Notes under the pieces: generated by a model
Databases searched by the model: none
Seen by the model: the letters and a program-made list of their open reading frames with translations, nothing else
What the model was told of the DNA's origin: nothing
Program-made: the position numbers and the translations under genes
Shown: positions 1,476-63,731 of the stretch, one piece after another
Layout: every line of letters starts with the position of its first letter
Numbering within the stretch: the first letter of the stretch is position 1
Origin: Escherichia coli
GTDB lineage: Bacteria; Pseudomonadota; Gammaproteobacteria; Enterobacterales; Enterobacteriaceae
Length of the DNA stretch: 64,000 nucleotides
Strand: one strand, 5' to 3'
Assembly (NCBI RefSeq): GCF_024502345.1
Contig: NZ_JALDNN010000001.1

Positions 1476-2135
1476 TTACTGCATCATCCCGGAGAATTTA
1501 TTCTCCGGGTCCATCTCCAGCGCCAGTCCTGACAACTGCTTTCTGTTTTTAATGAGATACCCTTTCTTGCTTTTAGTTAATAAACCGTCGTGAATGAATT
1601 GCGCGAGAACATATAAAAGATGTCGATAAGAAACGCCTAAATACTCTGCCGCTTGCGTATGCTTTTCGTGATAAAGATCACCTTCCTGCGAGAGTAATAT
1701 AAAAGCTGCCAGGCGATTAACTAACGGAAATGATTGATTCTGAGTTAAAGAAACAATATTACGATAATTTTTATGACTTAAGGTGACGCAGAGTTTTCGT
1801 AAAAATAGCGTGTCGTTTAATAACAGCGGGCGGTAATGTTTCATAGAGAGCGCAAGGCACCAACACTCTTCAATAGCCTGCACCGCACGCGGTTCATGGT
1901 CTTTGTCGATTAACTCAATCTCACCAATAAAACAGGGGGCGGCAAAGAAATCGATCAGCGACACGCGACCATTAGCAAGCGTGGCGTAAAGCCTGGCGCG
2001 GCCTCGCGTCAGATAAAACAGCCAGGACGGCTGTTGCCCTTCCTGCACAATGTAGTCACGCGCTAAAAAATGAAACAGCCGCGTATCGGCTGAAACATCC
2101 GTTAAAAAGCAATCCTTAAACGCGGATTCACTCAT
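1476..2135 (-). CDS. yeiL: Crp/Fnr-family transcriptional regulator YeiL
   Basis: ORF track 1476..2174. Trimmed to the internal Met [13 protein letters not shown], giving 219 aa, the K-12 YeiL length as remembered. C-terminal HTH ([16 protein letters not shown]). Confidence 0.85.
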
Positions 2136-2187
2136 CAATTGCAGCTTAAGATCATTATTGTGGATTTCTTTCACGATGTTTATCCGC

Positions 2188-2203
2188 TGTGAGATTTCTC
2201 ATA
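2188..2203. promoter_or_regulatory. CRP/FNR-like dyad in the yeiL-rihB divergent region
   Basis: TGTGA-gatttc-TCATA, 9/10 match to the TGTGA-N6-TCACA core. Lies 53 nt upstream of the yeiL start. Confidence 0.3.
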
Positions 2204-2303
2204 TTTAGCATACGTACGCTGTTGTTAAGATTCAATCATCGGCCCGGTCGAATTTTCTTTGCTGTAGAAAAAATAACGCAACTGGAAACAGAGGAAATAA
2301 ACA

Positions 2304-3245
2304 ATGGAAAAGAGAAAAATTATTCTGGATTGTGATCCGGGTCATGATGATGCTATTGCAATGATGATGGCAGCGAAACATCCGGCGATTGATTTATTAG
2401 GCATCACTATTGTAGCGGGTAATCAGACGCTTGATAAAACATTAATTAATGGCCTGAATGTTTGCCAGAAACTGGAGATTAATGTTCCGGTTTATGCGGG
2501 GATGCCGCAACCCATTATGCGTCAACAAATCGTTGCCGATAATATTCACGGTGAAACCGGACTGGATGGCCCGGTATTCGAGCCGCTGACCCGCCAGGCA
2601 GAAAGTACCCACGCGGTGAAATACATCATTGATACCCTGATGGCAAGCGATGGCGATATCACTCTGGTGCCGGTTGGTCCGCTTTCAAATATCGCGGTGG
2701 CAATGCGTATGCAACCCGCGATCCTGCCCAAAATCCGTGAAATTGTGCTAATGGGCGGCGCTTACGGTACAGGCAACTTCACGCCATCTGCCGAGTTCAA
2801 CATCTTTGCTGACCCGGAAGCCGCACGCGTGGTGTTCACCTCCGGCGTTCCATTAGTGATGATGGGCCTCGATCTTACCAACCAGACCGTTTGCACCCCG
2901 GACGTAATTGCTCGGATGGAAAGGGCAGGCGGCCCTGCCGGAGAGCTGTTCAGCGACATCATGAACTTCACTCTCAAAACGCAGTTCGAAAACTACGGCC
3001 TGGCTGGCGGCCCGGTGCACGACGCCACCTGCATCGGTTATCTGATTAACCCTGATGGCATTAAAACCCAGGAGATGTACGTCGAAGTGGACGTCAACAG
3101 TGGCCCTTGCTATGGGCGTACCGTCTGCGACGAGCTGGGCGTTCTTGGCAAGCCCGCTAATACCAAAGTCGGCATCACTATTGATACCGACTGGTTCTGG
3201 GGCTTAGTCGAAGAGTGCGTGCGCGGCTACATCAAAACCCATTAA
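2304..3245 (+). CDS. rihB: Pyrimidine-specific ribonucleoside hydrolase
   Basis: 313-aa ORF with the N-terminal DCDPGHDDA nucleoside-hydrolase aspartate motif. Synteny with K-12 rihB (yeiK). Confidence 0.92.
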
Positions 3246-3258
3246 GTGTTGATAACAA

Positions 3259-3297
3259 GCCGGGTCAGTATCGCAAGATCCAAGCCCGGCTATTTCT
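3259..3297 (+). terminator. Putative rihB terminator hairpin
   Basis: GCCGGG(3259-3264)...CCCGGC(3285-3290) followed by tatttct. Confidence 0.45.
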
Positions 3298-3321
3298 GAT
3301 GGGCAGAAAGCCGTCGCCCAA
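3292..3321 (+). promoter_or_regulatory. Second copy of the conserved leader block/hairpin, upstream of nupX
   Basis: atttctgatgggcagaaagccgtcgccc (3292-3319). The helix is kept by a paired change relative to copy 1 (C:G becomes T:A). Confidence 0.35.
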
Positions 3322-3344
3322 TATGACATGAAGAGATAATAACT

Positions 3345-4595
3345 ATGGATGTCATGAGAAGTGTTCTGGGAATGGTGGTATTGCTGACGATTGCGTTTTT
3401 ACTGTCAGTAAACAAGAAGAAGATCAGCCTGCGTACCGTTGGCGCGGCGTTAGTGTTACAGGTCGTGATTGGCGGGATTATGCTTTGGTTACCGCCAGGG
3501 TGTTGGGTCGCTGAAAAAGTCGCTTTTGGCGTGCATAAAGTGATGGCGTACAGCGACGCGGGTAGCGCATTTATCTTCGGTTCGCTGGTCGGGCCGAAAA
3601 TGGACACGCTGTTTGATGGCGCAGGATTTATCTTTGGTTTCAGAGTGTTACCGGCAATTATCTTCGTCACCGCGCTGGTGAGTATTCTCTATTACATCGG
3701 TGTGATGGGGATCTTAATTCGCATTCTCGGCGGTATATTCCAGAAAGCATTAAATATCAGCAAGATCGAGTCATTCGTCGCGGTCACTACCATTTTCCTC
3801 GGGCAAAACGAAATTCCGGCAATCGTCAAACCCTTTATCGATCGTCTGAATCGCAATGAATTATTTACAGCGATTTGTAGTGGCATGGCCTCGATTGCTG
3901 GTTCGACAATGATTGGTTACGCCGCACTGGGCGTACCTGTGGAATATTTGCTGGCGGCATCGTTAATGGCGATCCCAGGCGGAATCTTGTTTGCCCGCCT
4001 GTTAAGCCCGGCTACGGAATCTTCGCAGGTTTCTTTTAATAACCTCTCTTTCACCGAAACACCGCCAAAAAGCATTATTGAAGCCGCCGCGACAGGGGCA
4101 ATGACCGGGCTGAAAATCGCCGCAGGTGTGGCGACAGTAGTGATGGCATTTGTCGCCATCATTGCGTTAATTAACGGTATTATCGGCGGCGTTGGCGGCT
4201 GGTTTGGTTTTGAACATGCCTCGCTGGAGTCCATTTTAGGTTATCTGCTGGCCCCACTGGCGTGGGTAATGGGTGTTGACTGGAGTGATGCGAATCTTGC
4301 CGGGAGTTTGATTGGACAGAAACTGGCAATAAATGAATTTGTCGCTTATCTCAATTTCTCACCCTATCTGCAAACGGCTGGCACTCTGGATGCTAAAACC
4401 GTGGCGATTATTTCCTTCGCGTTGTGCGGTTTCGCTAACTTTGGTTCTATCGGGGTGGTGGTGGGGGCGTTTTCTGCGGTTGCACCACACCGTGCGCCGG
4501 AAATCGCCCAGCTTGGTTTACGCGCGCTGGCGGCGGCGACACTTTCTAACCTGATGAGTGCCACCATTGCCGGGTTCTTTATTGGTTTAGCGTAG
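3345..4595 (+). CDS. nupX: NupC/CNT-family nucleoside transporter
   Basis: 416-aa ORF paralogous to psuT. Position between rihB and yeiI matches K-12 nupX (yeiJ). Confidence 0.9.
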   Translation: MDVMRSVLGMVVLLTIAFLLSVNKKKISLRTVGAALVLQVVIGGIMLWLPPGCWVAEKVAFGVHKVMAYSDAGSAFIFGSLVGPKMDTLFDGAGFIFGFRVLPAIIFVTALVSILYYIGVMGILIRILGGIFQKALNISKIESFVAVTTIFLGQNEIPAIVKPFIDRLNRNELFTAICSGMASIAGSTMIGYAALGVPVEYLLAASLMAIPGGILFARLLSPATESSQVSFNNLSFTETPPKSIIEAAATGAMTGLKIAAGVATVVMAFVAIIALINGIIGGVGGWFGFEHASLESILGYLLAPLAWVMGVDWSDANLAGSLIGQKLAINEFVAYLNFSPYLQTAGTLDAKTVAIISFALCGFANFGSIGVVVGAFSAVAPHRAPEIAQLGLRALAAATLSNLMSATIAGFFIGLA

Positions 4596-20742: not shown

Positions 20743-20920
20743 TGTAGGCCGGATAAGGCGTTCACGCCGCATCCGGCGACAGGAGCCAAATGCCGGATGC
20801 AACGCTGGCGCGTTTTATCCGGCCTACAATGAGTTCAACATACTGATTTGTATGGTTTTGTAGGCCGGATAAGGCGTTCAAGCCGCATCCGGCGACAGGA
20901 ACTAAATGCCGGATGCGTCT
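20743..20920. repeat. BIME: cluster of about four REP units in alternating orientation
   Basis: tgtaggccggataaggcgttcacgccgcatccggcgacagg occurs twice (20743-, 20858-), with inverted partners gccggatgcaacgctggcgcgttttatccggcctaca and atgccggatgcg. The whole unit of about 115 bp is tandemly duplicated. Confidence 0.85.
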
Positions 20921-33304: not shown

Positions 33305-33477
33305 AAAGTTCTTTGACGTTGCATTGCTGGCGTAAATGTCAGCAATGCAGCATTTCCTCACGATTCTCCTTTGACGATCGCACTTTTTGCTCGTTATGAT
33401 GGCGTCGCTAGCCTCAGTAAATCCTTACTCCGGCGGTGCGCAACCCGTGCGCGTGAACCACTATCTGAATGCTCATC

Positions 33478-49293: not shown

Positions 49294-50426
49294 GACTGAA
49301 GATTCTCCGCAAGCCATGATGCCAGTTCGCCCGGTGTCATGGCGGCTATTTGTGCGCCGACATTAACCAGCGCCTGGGCCGTATCGCGGTCATAGCAAGG
49401 CGTTGCTGTGCTATCGAGCGCCGCCAGTCCCAGCACTTTGATGCCGCTCTGGACACACTTTTTCACCTGATGCGTCAGCAATGATGATGAACCCCCTTCG
49501 TAAAAATCGCTCACGAGGATAATGACGCTTTTTGCTGGTTGTTCAATAAGTTGCCGACCATATTCCACGGCACTGGCGATATTGGTCCCGCCGCCCAACT
49601 GTACTTTCATTAATAACTCTACCGGATCGGCAACGTCTGCCGTGAGATCAACGACGCTTGTGTCAAACGCCACCAGATGGGTACGAATGCCGGGTAACTG
49701 CCACAAACAGGCCGCCATCACCGCAGAGTGGATCACCGAGTCCACCATCGATCCGCTTTGATCAACCAGTAAGACCAGTTGCCATTGTTCACTGTGGCGT
49801 TTAATGCGGCTGTTAAAGCGGGGGGATTCGATATACAACTTGCCGTGTTGCGGGTGCCAGTGTTGCAGGTTGGCGCGCAGAGTACTTTTGAAATCAAAGT
49901 TTCGCGCCAGTGGAATAAATGAGCGGCGACGGCGATCGCGGACACCAGAAAAAGCCTGACGAACTTCCTTTGCCAGTCGAGCCATAATTTCTTCAACAAC
50001 CTGGCGCACTATCCGGCGGGCGGCAGCCAGTACTTCGGGGTTCATCAGATGTTTGGTGTGCAAAACGGCGCGTAGCAGACTTTCAGAAGGCTGCATACGT
50101 TCCAGCACGTCGAGATTCGTCACCACATCTTCAATGCCGTAGCGCAGTACGGCATCGCTTTCCAGCCGCTCAATCACCTGTTGCGGAAACAGCGTGTGAA
50201 TACTGTTGATCCACTCAGGGGTGGTGAGATTTGAGCTACCTAATCCACCGGAACGTTCACCACGCTGGAGCCGTTCAGGATCGCGCCCATACAGCCACTC
50301 CAGCGCGTGGTCTATCTGCCGGGCGTTGTCATCCAGCCCACAAAGCGTCGTTTCTGCCGCTTCGCCAAGAATTAATCGCCAGCGTTGTAGCTCACGGGTG
50401 GTCAGAAGATCGTTCAGTTCAGACAT
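49290..50426 (-). CDS. yehP: VWA-domain protein of the yeh cassette
   Basis: ORF track extends to 50654. Trimmed to MSELNDLLTTRELQRW, giving 378 aa. MIDAS motif LLVDQSGSM. The start overlaps the yehM stop by 8 nt. Confidence 0.88.
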   Translation of the reverse strand: MSELNDLLTTRELQRWRLILGEAAETTLCGLDDNARQIDHALEWLYGRDPERLQRGERSGGLGSSNLTTPEWINSIHTLFPQQVIERLESDAVLRYGIEDVVTNLDVLERMQPSESLLRAVLHTKHLMNPEVLAAARRIVRQVVEEIMARLAKEVRQAFSGVRDRRRRSFIPLARNFDFKSTLRANLQHWHPQHGKLYIESPRFNSRIKRHSEQWQLVLLVDQSGSMVDSVIHSAVMAACLWQLPGIRTHLVAFDTSVVDLTADVADPVELLMKVQLGGGTNIASAVEYGRQLIEQPAKSVIILVSDFYEGGSSSLLTHQVKKCVQSGIKVLGLAALDSTATPCYDRDTAQALVNVGAQIAAMTPGELASWLAENLQS

Positions 50427-52698
50427 GGAAAACTCCCCAGTTTTGCAGCGATGCCAGTGCCTGCTGTTCGAGTTGTTGATGATGTGCAATGGCTTGTGGT
50501 GGACAATGCAACGGCATTTGCAGCGCCGAAACGGGAAGTTGCGCCAGTTGATAATGCTCAAGCACCTGATGCGCCAGCGTCCCGCGTTCTCGTGGTGGTA
50601 GCCAGGCCATCGCCGCGCGTAAATCGGGCAGGGCATTGATAAAATTGGCATCACTCAGTTGATTTAAATGACTGCTGAAACCGGCGATAAATGCCGGCTG
50701 ACAGGCCAGTTGATGGCGGGCCAGCGCCAGCAAACCGTGCAGCGCTTCGCCGGATTGTGCCGGGGATAACTGCGCCAGCATCGTCAGCGCCGCTTCGGCA
50801 CTAGCGTTGGGATGTTCCAGACGCATCAGTGCGCCAAGAGCCGCGCCGCGATCCAGCGCCGGGGCATGGATTGCCTGACTGCGTCGCTCCAGTAAGGCTA
50901 CCGCCGCAGAAAGAGAAACGCCGGGTAAATTAACGCCGCTATATAGATCGCGCAGGATATGGCAAAGCGCCTGCCAGCTATGCATGTGAGCGTGAAACTC
51001 CTTTTCATCTGGTCTGCCGTTAGATTCACACAGCCACAGCGTGCGATCGATAGCCGCGCATAACGTCGTTTGTAATATCTGCGCGCCTTGCATACCGCTA
51101 ATTTCATCCAGCCGCCATAAGGCATATAGCACTTCCAGCGCCTGGCCCATTTCGGCAAATTGATTTTCCTGGGCGATTAATAATGTGAGTTGCTCCAGTA
51201 ATTGTTGACTGAAGGACGCCAGACCCGCTAACGCCGCCTGGCTAAGACATGTGGTGATACTGCCGATTCCACCCGCGTCCAGCATATCGGTTTCTAATTT
51301 ATGGCGTGCGGCTTCCTGGAGTGTGGCACCAAAGCAGGCGGCCTCAATCAATGCCGCATGCTGGCTAAGCGGGCGGGTTAATTTCCAGCGTTCTTCACCG
51401 TTGCCTGCAAGTGTCAGTGTGCTTCCCTGCTGGCGTACAATCCCTGGGATCTCCAGTATTGCCAGCCGATGTAACACCTGACTTTGCGCTAGTCCATTGG
51501 GGTTAAAGCGATTTAAGGTAAGCTCCGCCGGAAGAGAGATTGCGGTACGTTCCAGTTCGCAGGTGACATCTTTTGGCAGAGGCGGTTGTGGCGTAGAAGG
51601 GGCAAGTTTACCGAATCCGTCACCCGCTAATGTGTCTATCAACGTTAGCAGAATCGGATCGGTATCGGGATGAATAACGCCGCGATAGCTCCATGGCAAC
51701 GGCGCATTCAGGGATTCTTTAATCAGCGAGCCTGCTAAGGCATCCAGCCAGTCAGTGCGTAACGGTAGTGTATGACCGCGCAACTGTGCCAGCGCCATCG
51801 CATGCAGATGAGCGGCAGCCATATCCGCGGTCGAAGCAGGCAAGTGGTGTTGGCGCAAACGGGTAAGAACCGTTTTTAGCAGTTGTTCTCCCGCCTGCTG
51901 TAAGCCCCACTGCCAGCACCAGCTTTGCCAGACCGGGGCAGGCATTCCTGAAAGGTATCCTGCCAGCACATCAAGGCGCTTTTCACTGTAGGGTGTGAGA
52001 TAACAACCTGTAACGGCATCTGCCAGCGAGGGCAATTCTGGCTTGTTAATGTCCTGCGGACATTCGCGCCACATTTTTGCCAGTGCCGGAGCGTGCCAGC
52101 CACCGCAGACGACTAACACGTCGCCATTGTTTTGCTGCATCGCCCATGCAATCCAGCGGGCCATGAAGGCTTCGCGCTGACGATTGAGAGCATCTCCGGG
52201 GGAATCGCCCCGCAGTTGTGCAAAATAGTGCGCCAGCGCAGAGGGTAATGCAGTTTGCTGGCTTTCATCTTCGAATAAGTGATCCCACAGGGTATCGCTG
52301 TTATCCATGCGGGTGGCACGCAGCAGTAAGGTCTGGCTTTCATCTTGCGTATCAGGCGAATCGTTCTCTTCTTCACTCTGCGCCCAGCAAGGCAAATCGA
52401 TGAAGTAAGTTTATGCCTGAATACGACGTGCGGCTTGTAGCGCCTGCCACTCCGGCGAAAATTCAGCAAATGGCGTCCAGGCACCACGCCCGGGGGCCGC
52501 ACCGTCCTGATACTGGCAATAACTGTAAATAGCTACCGGAAGCTGGTGGGCTAAAAACAGTTCGTCTACCCGGTCATTAAAATCAGCCGGGCCTTCAATC
52601 AACACGTATCGTGGCCGCTGGCTTTCGATTAATGATTTGACCAGCCGGGCGCAGGCCGGGCTATGATGCCGGATGCCGACAATTAACGGCTCGCTCAT
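50419..52698 (-). pseudogene. yehM: yehM interrupted by an in-frame TAA at codon 96
   Basis: A single frame runs from the ATG at 52698 (MSEPLIVGIRHHSPACARL) to the TGA at 50419, 760 codons, matching the remembered 759-aa YehM. The codon at 52411-52413 (plus tta, minus TAA) is a stop: ...AARRIQA*TYFIDLPCWAQSEEE. The ORF track splits it into 52411..52866 and 50419..52395. Confidence 0.8.
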
Positions 52699-53797: not shown

Positions 53798-53905
53798 ATA
53801 TTCATCCCTGAAATGTATTAATGAAATAAACGATATTTTACGCGCAATAAATGTTTGGCGCATTAGTTGTTTGAGCGAAAAATATCTGGAAAGCAGATCA
53901 CAGTA

Positions 53906-53991
53906 AATAAAAAAACCTGCTGGTGAGGCAGGTTCTTTTATTTACTATTTTCAGGCCTAACACCACAGCCTGTGCAACATCGTGTTCCAAC
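53906..53991 (-). ncRNA. orzP: Orz-type antitoxin sRNA (orzP-like), predicted
   Basis: Minus-strand promoter TTGCAA(54021-54026)-17 nt-TATAAT(53998-54003). The predicted 5' end coincides with an 18-nt seed (53974-53991) complementary to the zor leader at 54140-54157. Terminator hairpin 53914-53934 followed by a U-run. Length about 86 nt. Confidence 0.6.
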
Positions 53992-53997
53992 GAACGA

Positions 53998-54048
53998 ATT
54001 ATAACCACGGCTGGACCCCGTTGCAATTAAGATAATGAGATTTATAAT
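53998..54048. promoter_or_regulatory. Divergent orz/zor promoters sharing a palindromic -35 (copy 1)
   Basis: TTGCAA (54021-54026) is its own reverse complement. TATAAT lies 16 nt to the right on the plus strand (54043-54048) and 17 nt to the left on the minus strand (53998-54003). Confidence 0.6.
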
Positions 54049-54229
54049 CCTGACTGTTGGGACGTTGCGCCGGATCGAACCTATTTCAAGTCCTGGCTAC
54101 CGGACGGGGGGTGCTGCAGGTAGTGCCCTGATCCGGAGTGCAACATCGTGGTCCAACATACGTAAACCAGTATCGACAGGCAGTGTAAGGGTAAGGTGCT
54201 GGTGTTGCGCTCCTTAATAAGGAGAGCGG

Positions 54230-54319
54230 ATGGACTCGCTGACACAAAAGTTAACCGTGCTCATTGCTGTACTGGAGCTATTAGTGGCTCTGTTACGGTT
54301 GATTGATTTGTTGAAGTAA
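54230..54319 (+). CDS. zorP: Type I toxin, ZorO/ZorP family (29 aa)
   Basis: Hand translation gives MDSLTQKLTVLIAVLELLVALLRLIDLLK-TAA, with SD aaggag 7 nt upstream. One residue differs from copy 2. Hydrophobic helix typical of type I toxins. Predicted leader about 175 nt. Confidence 0.8.
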   Translation: MDSLTQKLTVLIAVLELLVALLRLIDLLK

Positions 54320-54340
54320 CGGGCAAATTGAAACGCATCT

Positions 54341-54370
54341 AAGGGGGAAAACCGCTTCCCCCTTTAATAA
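54341..54370 (+). terminator. zor copy 1 terminator-like hairpin
   Basis: aaggggga-aaaccgct-tccccctt followed by taataaaat. Confidence 0.4.
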
Positions 54371-54515
54371 AATGATTACTGTTTTTATTAATTCATCATA
54401 TAACTCATTTTTATTTATAAATTCATCGATTTTATATTCAACGCACCATTTGACCGGGATGTGAATATTTATGTTGGGCTATTGGCAAAAAATATCTGGA
54501 AAGTAGATCGCAGAA

Positions 54516-54599
54516 AATAAAAAAACCTGCTGGTGAGGCAGGTTCTTTTATTTACTACAGTGACGCTAACTTGCTGATTGTGCAACATTTCGTACCAAC
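54516..54599 (-). ncRNA. orzO: Orz-type antitoxin sRNA (orzO-like), predicted
   Basis: Minus-strand promoter TTGCAA(54629-54634)-17 nt-TATAAT(54606-54611). 18-nt seed 54582-54599 is complementary (17 Watson-Crick pairs plus 1 G.U) to the zor leader at 54748-54765. Terminator hairpin 54524-54544 followed by a U-run. Confidence 0.6.
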
Positions 54600-54605
54600 G
54601 AATAA

Positions 54606-54656
54606 ATTATATCCATATCCACACTCCATTGCAATTCAGTGAGTGAGATTTATAAT
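54606..54656. promoter_or_regulatory. Divergent orz/zor promoters sharing a palindromic -35 (copy 2)
   Basis: TTGCAA 54629-54634. Plus-strand TATAAT at 54651-54656 (16-nt spacer). Minus-strand TATAAT at 54606-54611 (17-nt spacer). Confidence 0.6.
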
Positions 54657-54837
54657 CCTGCCCGTTGGGAGGTTGTGCCGGATCGGACCAATTTTAAGTC
54701 CTGGCTGCCGGACGGGTGGTGCCGCAGGCGGTGCCCTGATCCGGAGAGCAACGTTTCGTACCAACATACGTAAACCAGTATCAACAGGCAGTGTAAGGGT
54801 AAGGTGCTGGTGTTGCGCTCCTTAATAAGGAGAGCGG

Positions 54838-54927
54838 ATGGACACGCTGACACAAAAGTTAACCGTGCTCATTGCCGTACTGGAGTTATTAGTGGCTCTG
54901 TTACGGTTGATTGATTTGTTGAAGTAA
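54838..54927 (+). CDS. zorO: Type I toxin ZorO-like (29 aa)
   Basis: Hand translation gives MDTLTQKLTVLIAVLELLVALLRLIDLLK-TAA, with SD aaggag. Matches the ZorO peptide of E. coli O157:H7 as I remember it. Confidence 0.8.
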   Translation: MDTLTQKLTVLIAVLELLVALLRLIDLLK

Positions 54928-54948
54928 CGGGCAAATTGAAACGCATCT

Positions 54949-54975
54949 AAGGGGGAATACCGTTTCCCCCTTTAA
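54949..54975 (+). terminator. zor copy 2 terminator-like hairpin
   Basis: aaggggga-ataccgtt-tccccctt followed by taa. Confidence 0.4.
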
Positions 54976-54981
54976 GAAAGC

Positions 54982-55036: not shown

Positions 55037-55354
55037 TTATTCTATTTCTTGGTTGAATATATTCTGTAGTTCACGATTAAAAATTGCTATTACAGTTTCA
55101 GGTGATTCACCTCGTAATTTCCGCTCATCAATACACTCATCTCTTATATAAATCAACGCATCATTTATTAGCGGGTCAGCATCTTCTCGATCACGTTGAT
55201 GAAATGTTGGATGTAGCCGGAATCGCTCCAGTCGATAGACGGAACCTGTAAATAATTCAGAGCATTTATGGATCTCAAGTCTGAAGGAAAACGGATCTTC
55301 AGGTACAGGGACCTCATAATCGTAAATAGCAACTAGCTCTTTTTGCACGATCAT
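55037..55354 (-). CDS. yehK: Small uncharacterised protein of the yeh cassette
   Basis: 105-aa ORF with no motif I recognise. AT-rich (about 37-38% GC in two sampled 60-nt lines). Confidence 0.75.
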   Translation of the reverse strand: MIVQKELVAIYDYEVPVPEDPFSFRLEIHKCSELFTGSVYRLERFRLHPTFHQRDREDADPLINDALIYIRDECIDERKLRGESPETVIAIFNRELQNIFNQEIE

Positions 55355-55414: not shown

Positions 55415-57622
55415 TTAATGGAAAATGACGTCAGGTGCGCTTAACGCCTCACTCAAATCAAACACATCAAGTTCGGCAAAAGTGACGGATTTATTGTCAC
55501 GGTACACTCGAAGAGAACGGAAGCTCATTAGCGCTTTGCTATCAACATTGTAGTGGTTAAAACCGGGTGAAAACTTAAGGACCAGCCGGTACTCGCCCAG
55601 GTCATAGACAAATGCATCCTCATAGCCTGACTCCCAGCCTTTGTATCGCATTCCCATAAGCTGCCCAACGGTAGCGGATTTACCTTCCCAGCGAGTCAGG
55701 CTGTTACTGGTTGACTCGTCAGGTGTGAGCAGCACCGTGCACCGCGCCAACTGGCGAAAAGGCGGCATAATTTCGTAATCGGCAAAAAGCTGTGCAAATT
55801 CACTGCGCATTTCTACTGTCATTTCTAACGGGTGGGCAATGCCAATCAGAGCGTCCGCAGGCAGGTCAATTGGCTCATCTTGCGCATTGCAGAACTCCCC
55901 CTCTGCGGCCACACGAAAGGCGTTGAGTAAACAACGCGGTTCATTTGCCGGATAAGCCCCCCATATTAATCGCTGGGTAACCAGACGGGTAAAGGGATGA
56001 TTAACAAACAGAGAATGAAAATCTGCCAGCGACCAGCGTCGGGTGGTACGTAGGGCCGTTTCAAGACGCGGGAGCAGGTTTTTGCTCACCTGAGTGGCAT
56101 CTTTTTTTAGCCCTTTTAGTCGGGCCAGTGCCTCGGGCGCTTTCAGTTGATCGTCATCGGCGCGCAACCGGGGAACGCTTTTCTGGCGAACGTTTTGCTG
56201 ATCAAAGATAACCGGGTTGAGGTTTTCATCGAAGCGAACGGTAAACTGCCGGGGACCAAAATCAAAACTCAACGCCTGCGGATCATCAAGGCCCAGGGTT
56301 GGGACTAATCTGTCCGCTAGCTCTTCCTGGCTTAGCCCGCGATTTTCTGCGACCACCTGAAGAAATTCCGCCGCGTTATCACGTAAGGGGCGGGATTTCG
56401 CCCGTTGCGATATATGATGCAGCTGTATCAGCGCCATATCATTATTCATCAGGGTAAGGATGTTCAGGCCACTGACAGCACGGGCAGATTTGCCTTCTTG
56501 TGGCCAGCCGAGGATCTGTGTCGTTAGATCCCGTGCCGTGCTTTCGTCACCAAAGAGACTTAACGCCAGAAATGCCCAGTTGTCTTTTACGGGGGCACCA
56601 GCTTGTTGCCACGCAGTGAAGAGATCCCAGGCAAAAGCTGCCAGCGTTTGTGGCTGGCAGAACGTTTTCAGTTGTTCCAGCCCGCTATAAAAACGTCCCC
56701 CCTGGGTAAAGCGCAGCATTTCGCCGATAATTTCCAGAGCGTCATCGGTAACAGGTTGATTATTAGTGATAAGGCGCGGCCTGGACCACATTTGCGGATG
56801 CCAGAAATCAGGGGCTTTTGGAATGCGTGCCGGGTAAATCTCTATTGGACTCTGTTTAAGTAATTGTTCCAGGGCAGGCCATAGATCTGTACGCTGCCAA
56901 CGATTGGCTACAGTTTGTAGCAATTCGCCATGCCCATGTTCGTAAAGTAAACGCAGGGCAAGTAATGCAGCTTCGCTTTTATCGCTAGATTTGGTGAAGA
57001 CAAGAGGGATAAGTGCAGTAGCCGTATGTTCCGGCCATTGTAAAATCCACTGGCGAGCCAGATTACGCTGGCCCGCAAAACGCTGCCAGCAGCTTTCCTC
57101 TGCCAGAGAGAGATGCTTACGCAGTCGGAGATCGAATTCGTTATAGGTTTCTGAGCGATAACCATAGCCATAATCCTCGTCCTGATACTGCAATGTCACT
57201 ACCAGAGGATCACTCTCATAACACCGCGCAATAAACTGGCGTGCAATCACCACCTCAGTCGCATATTCCAGCCCCTCTTGTTGGACGATTTCGTCGAGCA
57301 ACTGTTGGCTGTCATTTTGCGCGATACAGGCTAGCGCCGCCATTGTCCGGGGCGGGATTGAGGGTTTGTGTTCGCCGATCAAGTTGATGGCCTGCGTGAT
57401 GGCGGACTGCCACTCCAGTGAAAAATTTTCATAACGCCAGACAATGTTTTTTTTCTTCTCAGCTTTTTGTAGCAATTCATCACCCAGTGTCTGAATGATG
57501 CTTTCAGTGATAACAGGCACTGGTTCGCCCGGCCAATTGCGATGGCTGAGTGGTGTTTTACCATTTTTATATTTCAGTTCCAGTTGGGCGTTATCAGCCA
57601 GCCACGGTAATTCCTTGTCCAT
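55415..57622 (-). CDS. yehI: DUF4132-like protein, paralog of YehH/MolR with the central region missing
   Basis: 735-aa ORF. N-terminal 180 aa and C-terminal about 550 aa align with YehH residues about 110-295 and about 697-1264. The YehH 296-696 equivalent is absent (junction ...SLAEESCWQRFAGQRNLARQWILQWPEH). I remember K-12 YehI as 1210 aa. Confidence 0.8.
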   Translation of the reverse strand: MDKELPWLADNAQLELKYKNGKTPLSHRNWPGEPVPVITESIIQTLGDELLQKAEKKKNIVWRYENFSLEWQSAITQAINLIGEHKPSIPPRTMAALACIAQNDSQQLLDEIVQQEGLEYATEVVIARQFIARCYESDPLVVTLQYQDEDYGYGYRSETYNEFDLRLRKHLSLAEESCWQRFAGQRNLARQWILQWPEHTATALIPLVFTKSSDKSEAALLALRLLYEHGHGELLQTVANRWQRTDLWPALEQLLKQSPIEIYPARIPKAPDFWHPQMWSRPRLITNNQPVTDDALEIIGEMLRFTQGGRFYSGLEQLKTFCQPQTLAAFAWDLFTAWQQAGAPVKDNWAFLALSLFGDESTARDLTTQILGWPQEGKSARAVSGLNILTLMNNDMALIQLHHISQRAKSRPLRDNAAEFLQVVAENRGLSQEELADRLVPTLGLDDPQALSFDFGPRQFTVRFDENLNPVIFDQQNVRQKSVPRLRADDDQLKAPEALARLKGLKKDATQVSKNLLPRLETALRTTRRWSLADFHSLFVNHPFTRLVTQRLIWGAYPANEPRCLLNAFRVAAEGEFCNAQDEPIDLPADALIGIAHPLEMTVEMRSEFAQLFADYEIMPPFRQLARCTVLLTPDESTSNSLTRWEGKSATVGQLMGMRYKGWESGYEDAFVYDLGEYRLVLKFSPGFNHYNVDSKALMSFRSLRVYRDNKSVTFAELDVFDLSEALSAPDVIFH

Positions 57623-57631
57623 GCTCTTTCC

Positions 57632-60600
57632 TTATTCAAACAGGGCTTCAATATCGTTAATTAGCTCGCTGGCGGTGATGGCATCGAGTACGGAGAGCTG
57701 CGCTTCCTGTGTTGAATTACTCCCCCAGCCATAGCTTTCCGCTTTGCCTTCCCATAGCCACAGCTTGCTTAAGAGCTGCTCAGCGCTAAGTTCGGCTGGT
57801 GACATACCCACTGCAAAGCCTTCATCGATTTCCATGATTAACGACCAGCGGCCCAGAGGTTTGATCATCCAGCCGATCCAGCCTCCATCCTGTGGTTCGC
57901 CCTTTATCCAGCCTTTATTCGCCAGCCCCATTACCCGACCGCTCGGGCATTTTCTGCTTGCCCAGCGGGTCAGTTCGCTGGCATTGCGCTCGGTTTCTGT
58001 CAGGGCGTAACTGTTACGGTCGAGCTGGCGGAACGGCGGTAGCAGTTCGTAGTCGGCAAAAAGCTGCCCAAATGCGGCGGCATCCGTCGGTGATATTTCC
58101 AGAACGTGAGGAATACCAACAGAGATATCGCCTTCCGGCAGGGTGAAAAGATCATCGTCAGCGGTGCTGTAGCTGTTATCTTCCGCTACGCGAAAGCAAG
58201 CCAGTAGCTGGTTTTCGGCGCTATAAACACCCCAAATCAGACGGCGGGTTAAGTGGCGAACCAACGGATGCTCAACCAGGAAGAGCTGGAAGTTTTCCGG
58301 CGACCAGCGGCGGCGCAGGCACATGGCGGATTCCAGCCTTGCTACCTGCTGGGCGGCGACGGTACGCGCATCTTTTTTCAGCAATTTGTAGCGGTTAACC
58401 GCATCGTTCGCCTGTGATTCATCATCGCTTTTATTGGGTTTAGGTAAGTCTTTCAGGCGGCTGCCGGAAACATCACGCACAAACGGTTTTAAGGTTTCAT
58501 CAAAGCTGACGGTGAACTGGCGTGGGCCAAAATCCAGCAGCAACGAACCGTTATCATCCAGACCGAGATCCGGTGCTAACCGATCTTCAAGCTCCGCCAC
58601 TGTCAGTTCGCGACTTTCGGCAATGTCGGCAATTTTCTCTTTCGCCCGCTCCTGTAATGCTTTGAATTTCAGTTTCTGGGCAATGCCGTTAAGCTGCATC
58701 AGGGCGATATCACTACCGATAGCGGCGAGAATATCCAACCCAACGGTGGCGCGTTTATGCTGAGATTCGCCAGGCCAGGCGCGGATTAATGGCGTCAGTT
58801 TGCGGGCGGTGTCATCGTTGCCGAGAACACCTAACGCAATGAACGCCCAGCTTTCTTTCGATGGCGCGCCCGCAGTCAGCCAGGCGGTAAACAGATCCCA
58901 GGCAAATTCAGCCAGTGAGTCGGCGGTACAGGCATCTTTCACCTGCAATAATCCCGGATACAGAGCCTCTTCCTGAGGGAAGCGGAGCATTTCACCGAGG
59001 TGCTGGAGTGCGCTATCGGGCAGTGATTGGGCGTTTGCTTTTAATACCGGGCGCGTCCAGAGCGATGGCTGATAAAAGGCCGGAAGAGTGGGGATTTTTG
59101 TCGGGTGATTATCTAAGGGATCGAGCGCAAGCAGAGCGTTCACCGCGTCTGTTACTTCCGGCTGGTTATAACGCCGGGCGATTTCTTGCAGTAATGGCTG
59201 ATGACCATTTTCGGTAAGCATACGCAAGGCAGCGCGGGCGTTATCCTGTGCTTCACCGGCTTTGCCGAGCGCCGCAGGCAGCAGGCCGGTAAGGGCATGT
59301 TCCGGGTATTTCAGCAGCCAGGTGCGGGCGTCTTGTCGTAGGGTTTTGAGTTTGTTGAAGGCGCGGGCGACGGCAGGAGCTAGCTCACTCGCTGCGAAGT
59401 AATTCGTGATGGGCAAGGCTTCCTGCGGATAGCGTGTAATTGAGTTAACTAAACCAGGTAAACCTTTGAGTCCAAAATGTAACATGGCGTATTCGGTATC
59501 GGTATGTGGAGATAGAGTAAGGGCATTCCATGCTTTTACTGCTTTCTCCAGCGGCAATGTTGTCAAAATCCCCAAATGCCAATAATGCCCGGTAGGTGAA
59601 TGAAACACCTTAAATTCACTTATTAAGGTTGAATAATCTTCATTTAGCCATGCCTCAACTACCGCTTCGGGAGCTTTAATATATGTACCAGCGATCCGTC
59701 GTTGAAAACCCATCCTTGCCAACAGGTTGGTAGTACTTTCTTCATGGCTAACCGTGATGTGTTGTGAATACCAGATATATTTCGCCAAAAGTTGATTACT
59801 GATTTCTTCTGTCATATAACAGATTGGCTCAATGCCTAATGGCGCTAAATCCAGCACCGGAATCGGCGATTTTTTCTTTTTCGAAAGCCATGGTGGGGAG
59901 ACTACTATGGCAGGCAGTAGATCGGCGCAGGCATGGTTTGAGGGCTGTGTCAGTTGTTGCTGGCATGATTTCAGTACGGCAACTGCGGGTGTCGAGAGCC
60001 AGGGAAGGACCTGTTCTGCCAGTGCTGGTTGTGAGATAAGCATTGTCATTAGCATAATGCGCCAACTGTTCTCTTCTTTTTGCCCAAGAAGTTCCGTCAG
60101 TGCCGCCATTGCTGCATGTGGGAACGCAGCAATGGCTTTCGTCATCCGATCGTGACAGCGTTTAGTTTGCCCGGCTACACGTATAAGCAGTGTCAATGCG
60201 ACCGGATGATTGATATGACGCAACACATCGGCGCAGTAGTCACTTGCGGCATAGGGAGCAAATCGGGGCAGGGCTGCAACACCTTGCTCCTGTAATACGG
60301 TGGCTGACCATATCGCACCACAATAGTAATCATCAAAAATGGCATATGGCTCGTGATATTTTTCTAATGAGGCAAGAATGTGCTCATCAGTCGCCACTAT
60401 TTTTAACCACTCAAGCGAGGGTAATTTTTTTTGCCCCAGTAGACGCTGGGCAATTTCATGTGCAATTTCTGGTTTTTCGGGTAATAACAAAGCAATTAAT
60501 GGTTGCCGCCATTCTGGAATATGTGGAATTGCGGCAATAAGTTTTTGTGCACATTTTTGCCAGAGAGACTCTTCCGCCAGTGATAAATGTTTACGTAGGC

Positions 60601-61426
60601 GTAATTCAAATCTGGAATATTGCTCCAAGTAGTTAGGTGCAATGCCAGACGGCAGAATAATAATGACATTATTCGCATAATCCCATTCAATATCAATCTG
60701 TTGAAGGTGTATTATTACATCAGTAGCATATGCCAGACCGCCTTCCTGGACGATCTGATCCATAACATCCTCACGCACTTTATATCTTGTGCATTTCATT
60801 TCAAGTGCCGTGAGTACAGCCATTACTGGTGATGGTAACTGTGTTGTTTTCAGGCCGTCGATCTGACTGATCGCCTGGGCGACGGTGTTTTGCCATTCTA
60901 AAGAACAGGCGCTGAAGTCAAATGTGGCTGTTTTATTATCCCGTTGCGACACACTACAGGCTAAGCGACGTAAGTGGGTCAATTTGTCTGCTTGCTGAAC
61001 AGGAACTTCGGGAAAGCGGCGATGGCTTAACGTGGTGTGTACAACTTCGGGCGGAAAAACGACAGCAATATCTTTCGCCAGCCACGGTAAAACAGCATCT
61101 GTATTTTTGTCAGCCGCACGGGTTTCTGCTACGAAAGAGGGTTGTTCCTGAATAATGGTGGATAAGTCCGCTACCTTGAGAGAGCCCGTTACCGTTTGGG
61201 AAGGTTGCAAAGAATTATCCTTCGCTTGCTCCATATATCCCTTCTTCACCTTCTCCGCAATCAGCTTCAGTTCCGCTTTTGCCGCCGCTGCAGCATCTGC
61301 AAAGCTTTTTACCTGACTTTGCCCGTTAGTGCCGACTTTACCCCAGTTGATATGCAGCTCGTTGTCTTGCTGCTCCACCGCCCAGAATTTATGTGATTTT
61401 TCGTCCTGATAGATATAACTCTTCAT
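57632..61426 (-). CDS. molR: WGR-domain + DUF4132-like giant protein (MolR), apparently intact
   Basis: 1264-aa uninterrupted ORF. N-terminal WGR-like module MKSYIYQDEKSHKFWAVEQQDNELHINWGKVGTNGQSQVKSF...KVKKGY. Synteny with K-12 yehH/molR, which I remember as a fragmented pseudogene in K-12. Confidence 0.85.
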   Translation of the reverse strand: MKSYIYQDEKSHKFWAVEQQDNELHINWGKVGTNGQSQVKSFADAAAAAKAELKLIAEKVKKGYMEQAKDNSLQPSQTVTGSLKVADLSTIIQEQPSFVAETRAADKNTDAVLPWLAKDIAVVFPPEVVHTTLSHRRFPEVPVQQADKLTHLRRLACSVSQRDNKTATFDFSACSLEWQNTVAQAISQIDGLKTTQLPSPVMAVLTALEMKCTRYKVREDVMDQIVQEGGLAYATDVIIHLQQIDIEWDYANNVIIILPSGIAPNYLEQYSRFELRLRKHLSLAEESLWQKCAQKLIAAIPHIPEWRQPLIALLLPEKPEIAHEIAQRLLGQKKLPSLEWLKIVATDEHILASLEKYHEPYAIFDDYYCGAIWSATVLQEQGVAALPRFAPYAASDYCADVLRHINHPVALTLLIRVAGQTKRCHDRMTKAIAAFPHAAMAALTELLGQKEENSWRIMLMTMLISQPALAEQVLPWLSTPAVAVLKSCQQQLTQPSNHACADLLPAIVVSPPWLSKKKKSPIPVLDLAPLGIEPICYMTEEISNQLLAKYIWYSQHITVSHEESTTNLLARMGFQRRIAGTYIKAPEAVVEAWLNEDYSTLISEFKVFHSPTGHYWHLGILTTLPLEKAVKAWNALTLSPHTDTEYAMLHFGLKGLPGLVNSITRYPQEALPITNYFAASELAPAVARAFNKLKTLRQDARTWLLKYPEHALTGLLPAALGKAGEAQDNARAALRMLTENGHQPLLQEIARRYNQPEVTDAVNALLALDPLDNHPTKIPTLPAFYQPSLWTRPVLKANAQSLPDSALQHLGEMLRFPQEEALYPGLLQVKDACTADSLAEFAWDLFTAWLTAGAPSKESWAFIALGVLGNDDTARKLTPLIRAWPGESQHKRATVGLDILAAIGSDIALMQLNGIAQKLKFKALQERAKEKIADIAESRELTVAELEDRLAPDLGLDDNGSLLLDFGPRQFTVSFDETLKPFVRDVSGSRLKDLPKPNKSDDESQANDAVNRYKLLKKDARTVAAQQVARLESAMCLRRRWSPENFQLFLVEHPLVRHLTRRLIWGVYSAENQLLACFRVAEDNSYSTADDDLFTLPEGDISVGIPHVLEISPTDAAAFGQLFADYELLPPFRQLDRNSYALTETERNASELTRWASRKCPSGRVMGLANKGWIKGEPQDGGWIGWMIKPLGRWSLIMEIDEGFAVGMSPAELSAEQLLSKLWLWEGKAESYGWGSNSTQEAQLSVLDAITASELINDIEALFE

Positions 61427-61566: not shown

Positions 61567-63600
61567 TTATTTCACCTGATGACCCGGTTTAGCACCAGCA
61601 TCCGGGCTTAGCAGGAAAATATCTTTCCCGCCAGGACCGGCAGCCATCACCATGCCTTCGGAGATACCGAAGCGCATTTTACGTGGTGCCAGGTTAGCCA
61701 CCATAATGGTGTGACGACCAATCAGTGCCTGCGGATCCGGGTAAGCAGAACGAATGCCGGAGAAGACATTACGCTTTTCGCCGCCGAGATCCAGCGTCAG
61801 GCGTAGCAGTTTGTCAGAACCTTCAACAAACTCTGCGTTTTCAATCAGCGCCACGCGCAGGTCAACTTTGGCGAAGTCGTCAAAGGTGATGGTTTCCTGA
61901 ATCGGATCATCTGCCAGCGGGCCAGTTACCGGCGCGGCAGCTGCTTTCACTTCTTCTTTAGACGCTTCCACCAGTGCTTCAACCTGCTTCATATCTATGC
62001 GGTTATACAGCGCCTTGAACGGATTCACTTTATGGCCCAGCAGCGGTTGCTGGATACCATCCCAGGTCAGTTCCGTATTAAGGAATGCTTCTGCGCGCTC
62101 GGTCAGTTTCGGCAGTACCGGCTTCAGGTAAGTCATCAGCACGCGGAACAGGTTTATGCCCATTGAGCAAATTGCCTGCAGGTCGGCATCGCGGCCTTCC
62201 TGTTTCGCTACCACCCACGGAGCCTGTTCATCGACATAGCGGTTAGCCAGATCAGCCAGCGCCATGATTTCGCGCACTGCTTTACCAAATTCGCGGCTTT
62301 CCCACGCTTCACCAATCACTTCAGCGGCATCAGTGAAGGTTCTGTACAACTGCGGGTCAGCCAGTTCGCTTGCCAGCACGCCGTCAAAACGCTTGTTGAT
62401 AAAGCCCGCGTTGCGGGAGGCCAGGTTAACCACTTTGTTCACGATATCGGCATTCACGCGCTGAACGAAATCTTCCAGGTTGAGATCGATATCATCAATG
62501 CGCGAAGAGAGTTTCGCAGTGTAGTAGTAACGCAGGCTGTCGGCGTCAAAATGATTCAGCCAGGTGCTGGCTTTAATAAAGGTACCGCGAGACTTAGACA
62601 TCTTCGCGCCGTTCACCGTCACATAGCCATGAACAAACAGGTTGGTCGGCTTGCGGAAGTTGCTGCCTTCCAGCATTGCTGGCCAGAACAGACTGTGGAA
62701 GTAAACAATATCTTTACCGATGAAGTGGTACAGCTCGGCGGTGGAGTCTTTCTTCCAGTATTCATCGAAGCTTACGCTGTCGCCGCGCTTGTCGCACAGA
62801 TTCTTGAAAGAACCCATATAGCCAATCGGCGCATCTAGCCAGACGTAGAAATATTTACCCGGCGCGTTCGGAATTTCAAAACCGAAGTACGGCGCGTCGC
62901 GGGAGATATCCCACTGTTGCAGGCCAGATTCAAACCACTCCTGCATTTTATTTGCCACCTGCTCCTGCAACGCACCGCTGCGGGTCCATGCCTGCAACAT
63001 TTCGCTGAAAGAGGGCAGATCAAAGAAGAAGTGTTCAGAATCACGCATTACCGGCGTAGCGCCAGAAACCACCGATTTCGGCTCGATCAATTCAGTCGGG
63101 CTGTAGGTCGCGCCGCAGACTTCGCAGTTATCGCCGTATTGATCCGGGGATTTACATTTCGGGCAGGTGCCTTTTACAAAACGGTCCGGCAGGAACATGC
63201 CTTTTTCCGGATCGTACAGCTGAGAGATGGTGCGGTTTTTAATAAAACCGTTTTCTTTCAGGCGAGAGTAGATAAGTTCTGACAACTGGCGGTTCTCTTC
63301 GCTGTGCGTCGAGTGATAGTTGTCATAGCTGATGTTAAAGCCTGCGAAATCAGTCTGATGCTCCTGACTCATTTCGCCAATCATCTGCTCCGGGGTGATA
63401 CCAAGCTGCTGAGCTTTCAGCATGATCGGTGTACCGTGGGCATCGTCGGCGCAGATGAAGTTGACCTCGTGGCCGCGCATTCGCTGGTAACGGACCCAGA
63501 CATCAGCCTGGATGTGCTCCAGCATATGGCCGAGGTGGATTGAGCCGTTAGCGTACGGCAGTGCGCACGTCACCAGAATTTTCTTCGCGACTTGAGTCAT
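61567..63600 (-). CDS. metG: Methionyl-tRNA synthetase
   Basis: ORF track 680 aa. Trimmed to [29 protein letters not shown] (HIGH motif), giving 677 aa. KMSKS present. Confidence 0.97.
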
Positions 63601-63731
63601 AGTAGGCATTACTTCTTAATAGTGAAAAGGGGTTAGATAGTACCAAATGGGAAAATGTTAAGTAAGTACTTCTCTATATTCTTCAGGTAAACTATCAGCT
63701 GATGGTTTATCTATACAAAAAAGGAGTCGGG

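Follow-up and report, generated by a model that had tools for sequence, protein, structure and literature searches.

The closest described relative of the gene analysed here is yehI of Escherichia coli K-12 (b2118, 3633 bp), which encodes a DUF4132 protein of 1210 amino acids (aa; WP_000356817.1) and stands in the order metG, DUF4132 paralog, yehI, yehK, yehL, yehM, yehP, yehQ. In a 64,000-nucleotide (nt) stretch of the E. coli contig NZ_JALDNN010000001.1 (assembly GCF_024502345.1), hereafter the window, the ortholog of this gene has the same synteny and the same DUF4132 Pfam match but is without residues 182-656 (475 aa), leaving a protein of 735 aa. Losses of this type have a precedent in E. 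coli: spontaneous lacI deletions between short direct repeats were reportedly described by Albertini et al. in 1982, and RecA-independent deletions by slipped misalignment are said to have been characterized by Lovett and colleagues. The yehI deletion likewise has repeats at its endpoints, keeps one repeat copy, is seamless and lies on the kilobase scale. It departs from those known deletions in having an imperfect repeat (10/11), in which perfect homology at the inferred crossover is limited to 4 bp. The allele in the window is rare and unremarkable: yehI is a known, non-essential gene, and the event that produced the deletion is of a known kind. The reading that we prefer, with a probability of roughly 80%, is a recent, lineage-specific, in-frame deletion of 1,425 bp from yehI by short homology, as part of the neutral decay of a dispensable locus.

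Extent and endpoints of the yehI deletion

55415-57622, minus strand: yehI deletion allele, an uninterrupted open reading frame (ORF) of 735 aa, WP_060659351.1
57079-57089, minus strand: deletion junction, a single retained CTGGCAGCGTT copy of an 11-bp imperfect direct repeat

The initial annotation of the window described yehI as lacking about 400 codons that are present in its tandem paralog yehH, from a two-block alignment in which that many paralog residues are skipped. BLASTP reproduces this alignment: YehI 2-206 matches YehH 110-316 (33% identity, E 3e-22) and YehI 171-688 matches YehH 682-1204 (43% identity, E 2e-137), leaving YehH ~291-696, about 400 residues, unmatched in the window YehI. 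The figure of about 400 codons is right with respect to the paralog but not with respect to the gene's own ortholog, against which 475 codons are lost; the central region is longer in YehI than in YehH. The length of 1210 aa given there for K-12 YehI was correct. At the nucleotide level, nt 1-544 of the window gene match nt 1-544 of the full-length alleles of NCTC9064 and K-12, and nt 534-2208 match nt 1959-3633 of both. What is missing between them is 1,425 bp, or 3 x 475 codons, and the frame is preserved across the junction, as the annotation had said. In K-12 coordinates, residues C182 to R656 are absent, and residues 1-181 and 657-1210 are kept.

The two matching pieces of the window gene overlap by 11 nt on the query. 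The overlap corresponds to a 10/11 direct repeat, CTGGCA(G/C)CGTT, present at both endpoints in the nearest full-length allele, that of NCTC9064; the initial annotation had suggested looking for such repeats in full-length alleles. The left copy in NCTC9064 is CTGGCAGCGTT, followed by GCGCC, and the right copy, 1,425 bp from it, is CTGGCACCGTT, followed by TTGCGG; the window has one CTGGCAGCGTT followed by TTGCGG, at gene nt 534-544. Because the retained variable base is G, the crossover would have taken place within the last 4 bp, CGTT. The junction repeat encodes W179-Q180-R181, after which comes F182, and both repeat copies in NCTC9064 encode W-(Q/H)-R. Comparison with the full-length alleles reveals no foreign DNA at the junction, which is seamless. 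The position originally given for the deletion, 57059-57082 (codons 181-188), overlaps the junction but extends into its right flank.

The two yehI pieces are 99.6% and 99.9% identical in nucleotide sequence to NCTC9064 yehI, with two substitutions in 2,208 nt and one homopolymer indel outside the deletion, and the retained residues are ~95% identical to K-12 YehI. NCTC9064 is the closest complete genome, and RefSeq flags its yehI as frameshifted by a G6 to G7 homopolymer (L001 ~9085); since this difference may be a long-read sequencing error, we did not use it as evidence of decay. The deleted segment has a G+C content of 49.9%, against 50.5% for the whole full-length gene, and on this ground the idea that it was an AT-rich cassette or foreign insert was rejected. 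A related claim, that the region missing from YehI corresponds to the AT-rich centre of yehH, is weakly supported: YehH 291-696 has a G+C content of 46% compared with 55% in the C-terminal third, but the N-terminal part of yehH is equally low at 45-47%.

Ancestry, rarity and clonality of the allele

The direction of change is loss from a long ancestral form. The window locus is collinear with the K-12 and NCTC9064 loci, and yehI is in the orthologous position, between the metG-adjacent WGR-DUF4132 paralog and yehK-yehL. The retained parts of yehI match as two pieces spanning ~3,633 bp in more than 5,200 of the 5,426 complete E. coli genomes, and the deleted 1,425 bp are present at a coverage of at least 80% in 5,260 of them. 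Orthologs of 1,195-1,215 aa are found in E. fergusonii, E. marmotae, E. albertii, Klebsiella (Klebsiella oxytoca group) and Serratia fonticola. K-12 YehI also aligns end to end with the window YehH (2-1163 with 110-1204, 37% identity); because YehH has a homologous central region, still present in the window yehH, this region predates the duplication that gave rise to the paralogs.

None of the 5,426 complete genomes contained a 201-bp probe centred on the junction in one piece, and a 40-mer across the junction had no match in GTDB species representatives. With the junction absent from the complete genomes and the long form ancestral, the initial description of a strain-specific in-frame internal deletion is supported; the short form is neither common nor ancestral. 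Clustering at 90% identity leaves the 735-aa protein on its own as a singleton, and the exact protein occurs only on four contigs (GCA_050022275.1, GCA_001484085.1, SRR24000611 and a 4.7-Mb contig). The three contigs returned as loci have 0-2 mismatches with the window (99.99-100% identity) over spans of 14.2 kb for GCA_050022275.1 and GCA_001484085.1, and 8.6 kb for SRR24000611. The carriers include a Logan assembly of raw reads. The same junction in independent assemblies rules out an assembly artefact, the near-identity of the carrier contigs indicates a single clone, and the event is recent given that so few differences separate the allele from NCTC9064. The sequences thus show that the deletion exists and that it is rare and clonal, and they establish its exact endpoints and the repeat.

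What the deletion removed from YehI

The 735-aa YehI belongs to the DUF4132 family (PF13569), with a match at residues 479-663 that scores 158.7 bits against a gathering cut-off of 27, and this is its only Pfam domain. It does not have the canonical architecture of ~1,200 aa, which consists of an N-domain, a central helical region and a conserved C-terminal module. The full-length Klebsiella ortholog P0040 (1198 aa) was modelled with AlphaFold2 (AF2) from a 30-sequence alignment, with a mean predicted local distance difference test score (pLDDT) of 71 and a predicted template modelling score (pTM) of 0.38. The model has an N-terminal α/β domain (~40-150) and an all-helical stretch (~165-900) with low-confidence linkers, beyond which lies an α/β C-terminus containing DUF4132. 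The left breakpoint (P0040 184/185) is inside a predicted helix, 179-195, and the right breakpoint (643/644) is at the end of a predicted helix, 634-643, beside a low-confidence loop, 644-647. In the AF2 model of the 735-aa form (pLDDT 65.6), junction residues 172-186 are below 50. According to these models, the 735-aa YehI would retain the N-terminal α/β domain and the C-terminal 554 residues, including DUF4132.

When 1.84 billion representatives were scanned in full by HMMER with the 735-aa protein as query, 5,584 relatives were returned, and 147 of the listed representatives were re-aligned to full-length K-12 YehI. The module conserved across the family corresponds to approximately K-12 YehI residues 585-1150. 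In 142 distant representatives, alignments to it start at a median K-12 residue of 583 (interquartile range 569-615), and 96% begin before residue 657. Only closer relatives share the N-domain and most of 165-545. Lost together with the variable region is a strongly conserved segment just before the right breakpoint, with near-invariant columns 594-643. What the deletion takes is the variable helical middle of the protein plus 40-110 residues at the start of the C-terminal module that the family conserves.

The initial annotation had raised the possibility that a discrete domain or a repeat array was excised. The AF2 models and the family alignment do not bear this out, and a clean domain excision was rejected, as the left end of the deletion interrupts a predicted helix and its right end falls within the conserved module. 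A repeat-register deletion, in which LSLAEESCWQR and LALPVARVWRR would occupy equivalent positions of a helical repeat, was also rejected, and the shared W-x-R looks like chance microhomology. When the region around the left breakpoint was compared by hhalign with every 100-residue segment of the family alignment, no probability reached 1% except in the self-overlap, and the two breakpoint regions showed no homology; a BLASTP self-comparison of YehI detected no internal repeat. A Foldseek search of the PDB with the predicted helical region, most of which is deleted in the window allele, returned a single class of structure, the HEAT/ARM α-solenoids (importins, PP2A-A, CAND1, β-catenin), all matches being non-significant (E 1e-3 or worse, TM-score ~0.1). 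Unlike HEAT/ARM proteins, the YehI helical region appears to be without a detectable sequence repeat, and the predicted likeness would be one of resemblance only.

Some family members are short and consist of nearly the conserved C-terminal module alone, starting at approximately K-12 YehI 545-585. They include P0104 (Klebsiella aerogenes, 784 aa, 40 member sequences) and P0139, P0144, P0159, P0161 and P0232 (635-691 aa), and they may be true short architectures or truncated ORFs.

The yeh locus and its other variation

50419-52698, minus strand: yehM (DUF5682), codon 96 of which is a premature stop (window 52411-52413)
55037-55354, minus strand: yehK, 105 aa, intact, directly downstream of yehI
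57632-61426, minus strand: yehH/molR-type tandem paralog, upstream of yehI, intact, 1264 aa, WGR and DUF4132
61567-63609, minus strand: metG

In Pfam the paralog has WGR at its N-terminus and DUF4132 at its C-terminus, and 9 bp separate its 1264-aa ORF from the downstream 735-aa yehI ORF. At the collinear NCTC9064 and K-12 BW2952 loci, RefSeq uses the name yehI for the second gene and describes the first as a "DUF4132 domain-containing protein". This first gene is a pseudogene in K-12, presumably the one known as molR/yehH. Beyond yehK lie yehL, yehM, yehP and yehQ. As the yehI deletion is in frame, it places no frameshift or premature stop codon ahead of yehK.

Other changes have accumulated at this locus. 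The stop in yehM, Q96*, is a change from CAA to TAA at 52411-52413 relative to NCTC9064 and K-12, and in the sister contig L003, which shares the yehI deletion, gene calls split yehM at the same point into 95 and 658 aa. The genes yehL, yehP and yehQ are open in the window; molR and yehQ are pseudogenes in K-12. A transposon interrupts the DUF4132 region in 184 isolates of sequence type 131 (ST131) (PMC9334617). A protein search identified independent in-frame deletions of yehI elsewhere, in P0003, P0010 (37 aa), P0018 and P0102. At the DNA level (L007-L009), the P0003, P0018 and P0102 deletions are 435 bp, 291 bp and ~2,028 bp, with endpoint homologies of 1, 10 (9/10) and 6 bp, respectively. 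Like the window allele, these are internal in-frame losses found on few contigs each; they differ in their breakpoints, and none has the window junction. Hybrid genes, formed between the paralogs, are represented by P0019, P0021, P0026, P0033 and P0070, in which a WGR/YehH N-terminus is joined to a YehI C-terminus; the crossover in P0026 is at the homologous FAWDLFTAW motif.

The number of DUF4132 genes is not constant either. ST131 (L006 1-10089, NZ_CP157672.1) has three in tandem upstream of yehK, namely two WGR/YehH-like copies that are 48-75% identical to the window YehH, and yehI, whereas K-12 and the window have two, so the copy number of the array varies between lineages. Between ST131 and K-12 or NCTC9064, the centre of yehI (nt ~1200-1800) has a nucleotide identity of 74-88%, compared with 95-98% in the C-terminal third. 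Identity over the deleted segment drops to just 80-90% in 903 complete genomes, whereas over the retained parts it is 90% or more in every one of them. This central divergence suggests mosaic or diversifying alleles.

The yehK-yehL intergenic region of the window (53871-54979) is ~0.9 kb longer than in K-12 and NCTC9064 and contains a tandem duplication (period ~608 bp, 87% identity). Both duplicated units have a 29-aa ORF on the plus strand, at 54230-54319 (MDSLTQKLTVLIAVLELLVALLRLIDLLK) and 54838-54927 (MDTLTQ...), and both carry on the minus strand an antitoxin RNA that matches OrzO-P in Rfam, at 53909-53984 (99.9 bits) and 54519-54592 (88.8 bits). The element is the type I toxin-antitoxin locus z3289/z3290, described by Fozo et al. 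2010 (PMC2887945), which K-12 lacks. We take it to be the locus also named zorO-orzO/zorP-orzP. Two further Rfam matches at gathering score are unrelated to the yehI deletion: naRNA4, a nucleoid-associated RNA derived from repetitive extragenic palindromes, at 20747-20824 on the plus strand (85.8 bits), and a Peptidase-S11 cis-regulatory RNA motif at 33393-33473 on the plus strand (72.8 bits).

Origin of the deletion and competing explanations

How might the 735-aa form have arisen? The parent would be an NCTC9064-like full-length allele with two CTGGCA(G/C)CGTT copies 1,425 bp apart, which may have mispaired by replication slippage or another form of short-homology illegitimate recombination, an outcome of which would be one remaining repeat copy and a seamless junction. 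Several features of a short-homology event are found here: collinear flanks, no inserted DNA, a direct repeat in the parent and one copy kept. Judging from the endpoint sequences, slipped misalignment probably formed the deletion. The resulting 735-aa YehI is most likely impaired or inactive, and the dispensable, decay-prone nature of the metG-proximal DUF4132/yeh locus would explain why the change was tolerated.

Several points weigh against this account. The yehI ORF is open and in frame and has kept its start codon. Full-length yehI contains 119 pairs of segments that match at 10/11 or better, compared with 36-72 in shuffled sequence; 10/11 repeats are therefore frequent in the gene, and the endpoint repeat fits slippage without proving it and is not a special site. 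The AF2 alignments are shallow (30-31 sequences), with pLDDT of 66-71 and pTM of 0.38, and AF2 is not a measure of stability. The search for other deletions sees only long open ORFs and is thus biased to in-frame events. In the literature on DUF4132, the yeh genes and WGR/MoxR/vWA/SWIM proteins, no functional study was found.

Three of the alternatives concern whether, and from what, anything was lost. The only argument for an assembly or sequencing artefact, with the strain truly possessing full-length yehI, is that not one of the 5,426 complete RefSeq genomes has the junction. Such an artefact is extremely unlikely: the identical junction and protein are found in at least four separately assembled contigs under different accessions, an 11-bp repeat is far too short for assembly collapse, and the flanks are collinear with the full-length allele. 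There is practically no chance that the 735-aa architecture is ancestral and that the other E. coli and yehH gained a 1.4-kb insertion, as the long form is present in ~97% of complete E. coli genomes and in other Escherichia, Klebsiella and Serratia, and the homologous central region in YehH is older than the duplication. An ancestral short form was rejected on the genome-wide prevalence of the long form, the orthologs and the paralog alignment. Unequal recombination or gene conversion between yehH and yehI could be imagined from the yehH-yehI hybrid genes of other strains. However, both sides of the junction are of yehI type by their identity to K-12 YehI (~95% in protein) and NCTC9064 yehI (99.6-99.9% in nucleotide sequence), yehH is intact at full length upstream, and the paralogs are only 33-43% identical in protein. 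The chance of such an origin is almost nil, and an unequal yehH x yehI crossover was rejected, with no WGR domain in the 735-aa protein and neither paralog copy lost.

The remaining alternatives accept the deletion and dispute its consequence. The 735-aa protein could be a functional, possibly adaptive short YehI from which a dispensable helical spacer or sensor has been trimmed. This would fit the intact, in-frame ORF with its start codon and downstream yehK unaffected, the high variability of the central region, the most variable between E. coli alleles (74-88% against 95-98% C-terminal nucleotide identity), the existence of family members of 635-790 aa with only 5-200 residues before the conserved module, and the regeneration of the W-x-R motif at the junction. 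We nevertheless consider it unlikely, because the cut lies 40-110 residues into the conserved module and removes near-invariant columns 594-643, because the left breakpoint interrupts a predicted helix and the junction is of low confidence in the model, and because the one near-clonal lineage to which the allele is limited also carries the yehM Q96* nonsense mutation; moreover, there has been no time for a selection signature to arise. A broader version of this view would treat the tandem DUF4132 genes as the fast-diversifying, modular part of a cluster with YehL (AAA+/MoxR-like), YehM, YehP (vWA) and YehQ (SWIM), so that deletions and hybrids would be not decay but functional variants resetting specificity, such as that of a sensor or adaptor solenoid. 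We regard this as very unlikely. If it were true, the 735-aa form would be a natural "mini-YehI", and the central 475 residues would be dispensable for core activity.

Functional context and significance

Searches with the yeh proteins gave no indication of function. PADLOC-DB contained no match at E <=1e-3 for YehH, YehI, YehK, YehL, YehM, YehP or YehQ, a sequence search of the PDB with the yeh proteins gave 0 matches, and NCBIfam gave nothing specific for them.

By itself the yehI deletion matters little, since it is a rare, recent, clonal allele that a well-known mutational route can produce. The junction at 57079-57089 together with yehM Q96* is a precise marker of the E. coli lineage that carries them. 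For studies of YehI and DUF4132, the allele is a natural truncation in which the variable helical middle is missing along with the beginning of the conserved module. Taken with the other deletions, the hybrids, the copy-number variation and the pseudogenes, it shows the metG-proximal DUF4132/yeh locus to be structurally unstable and dispensable in E. coli.

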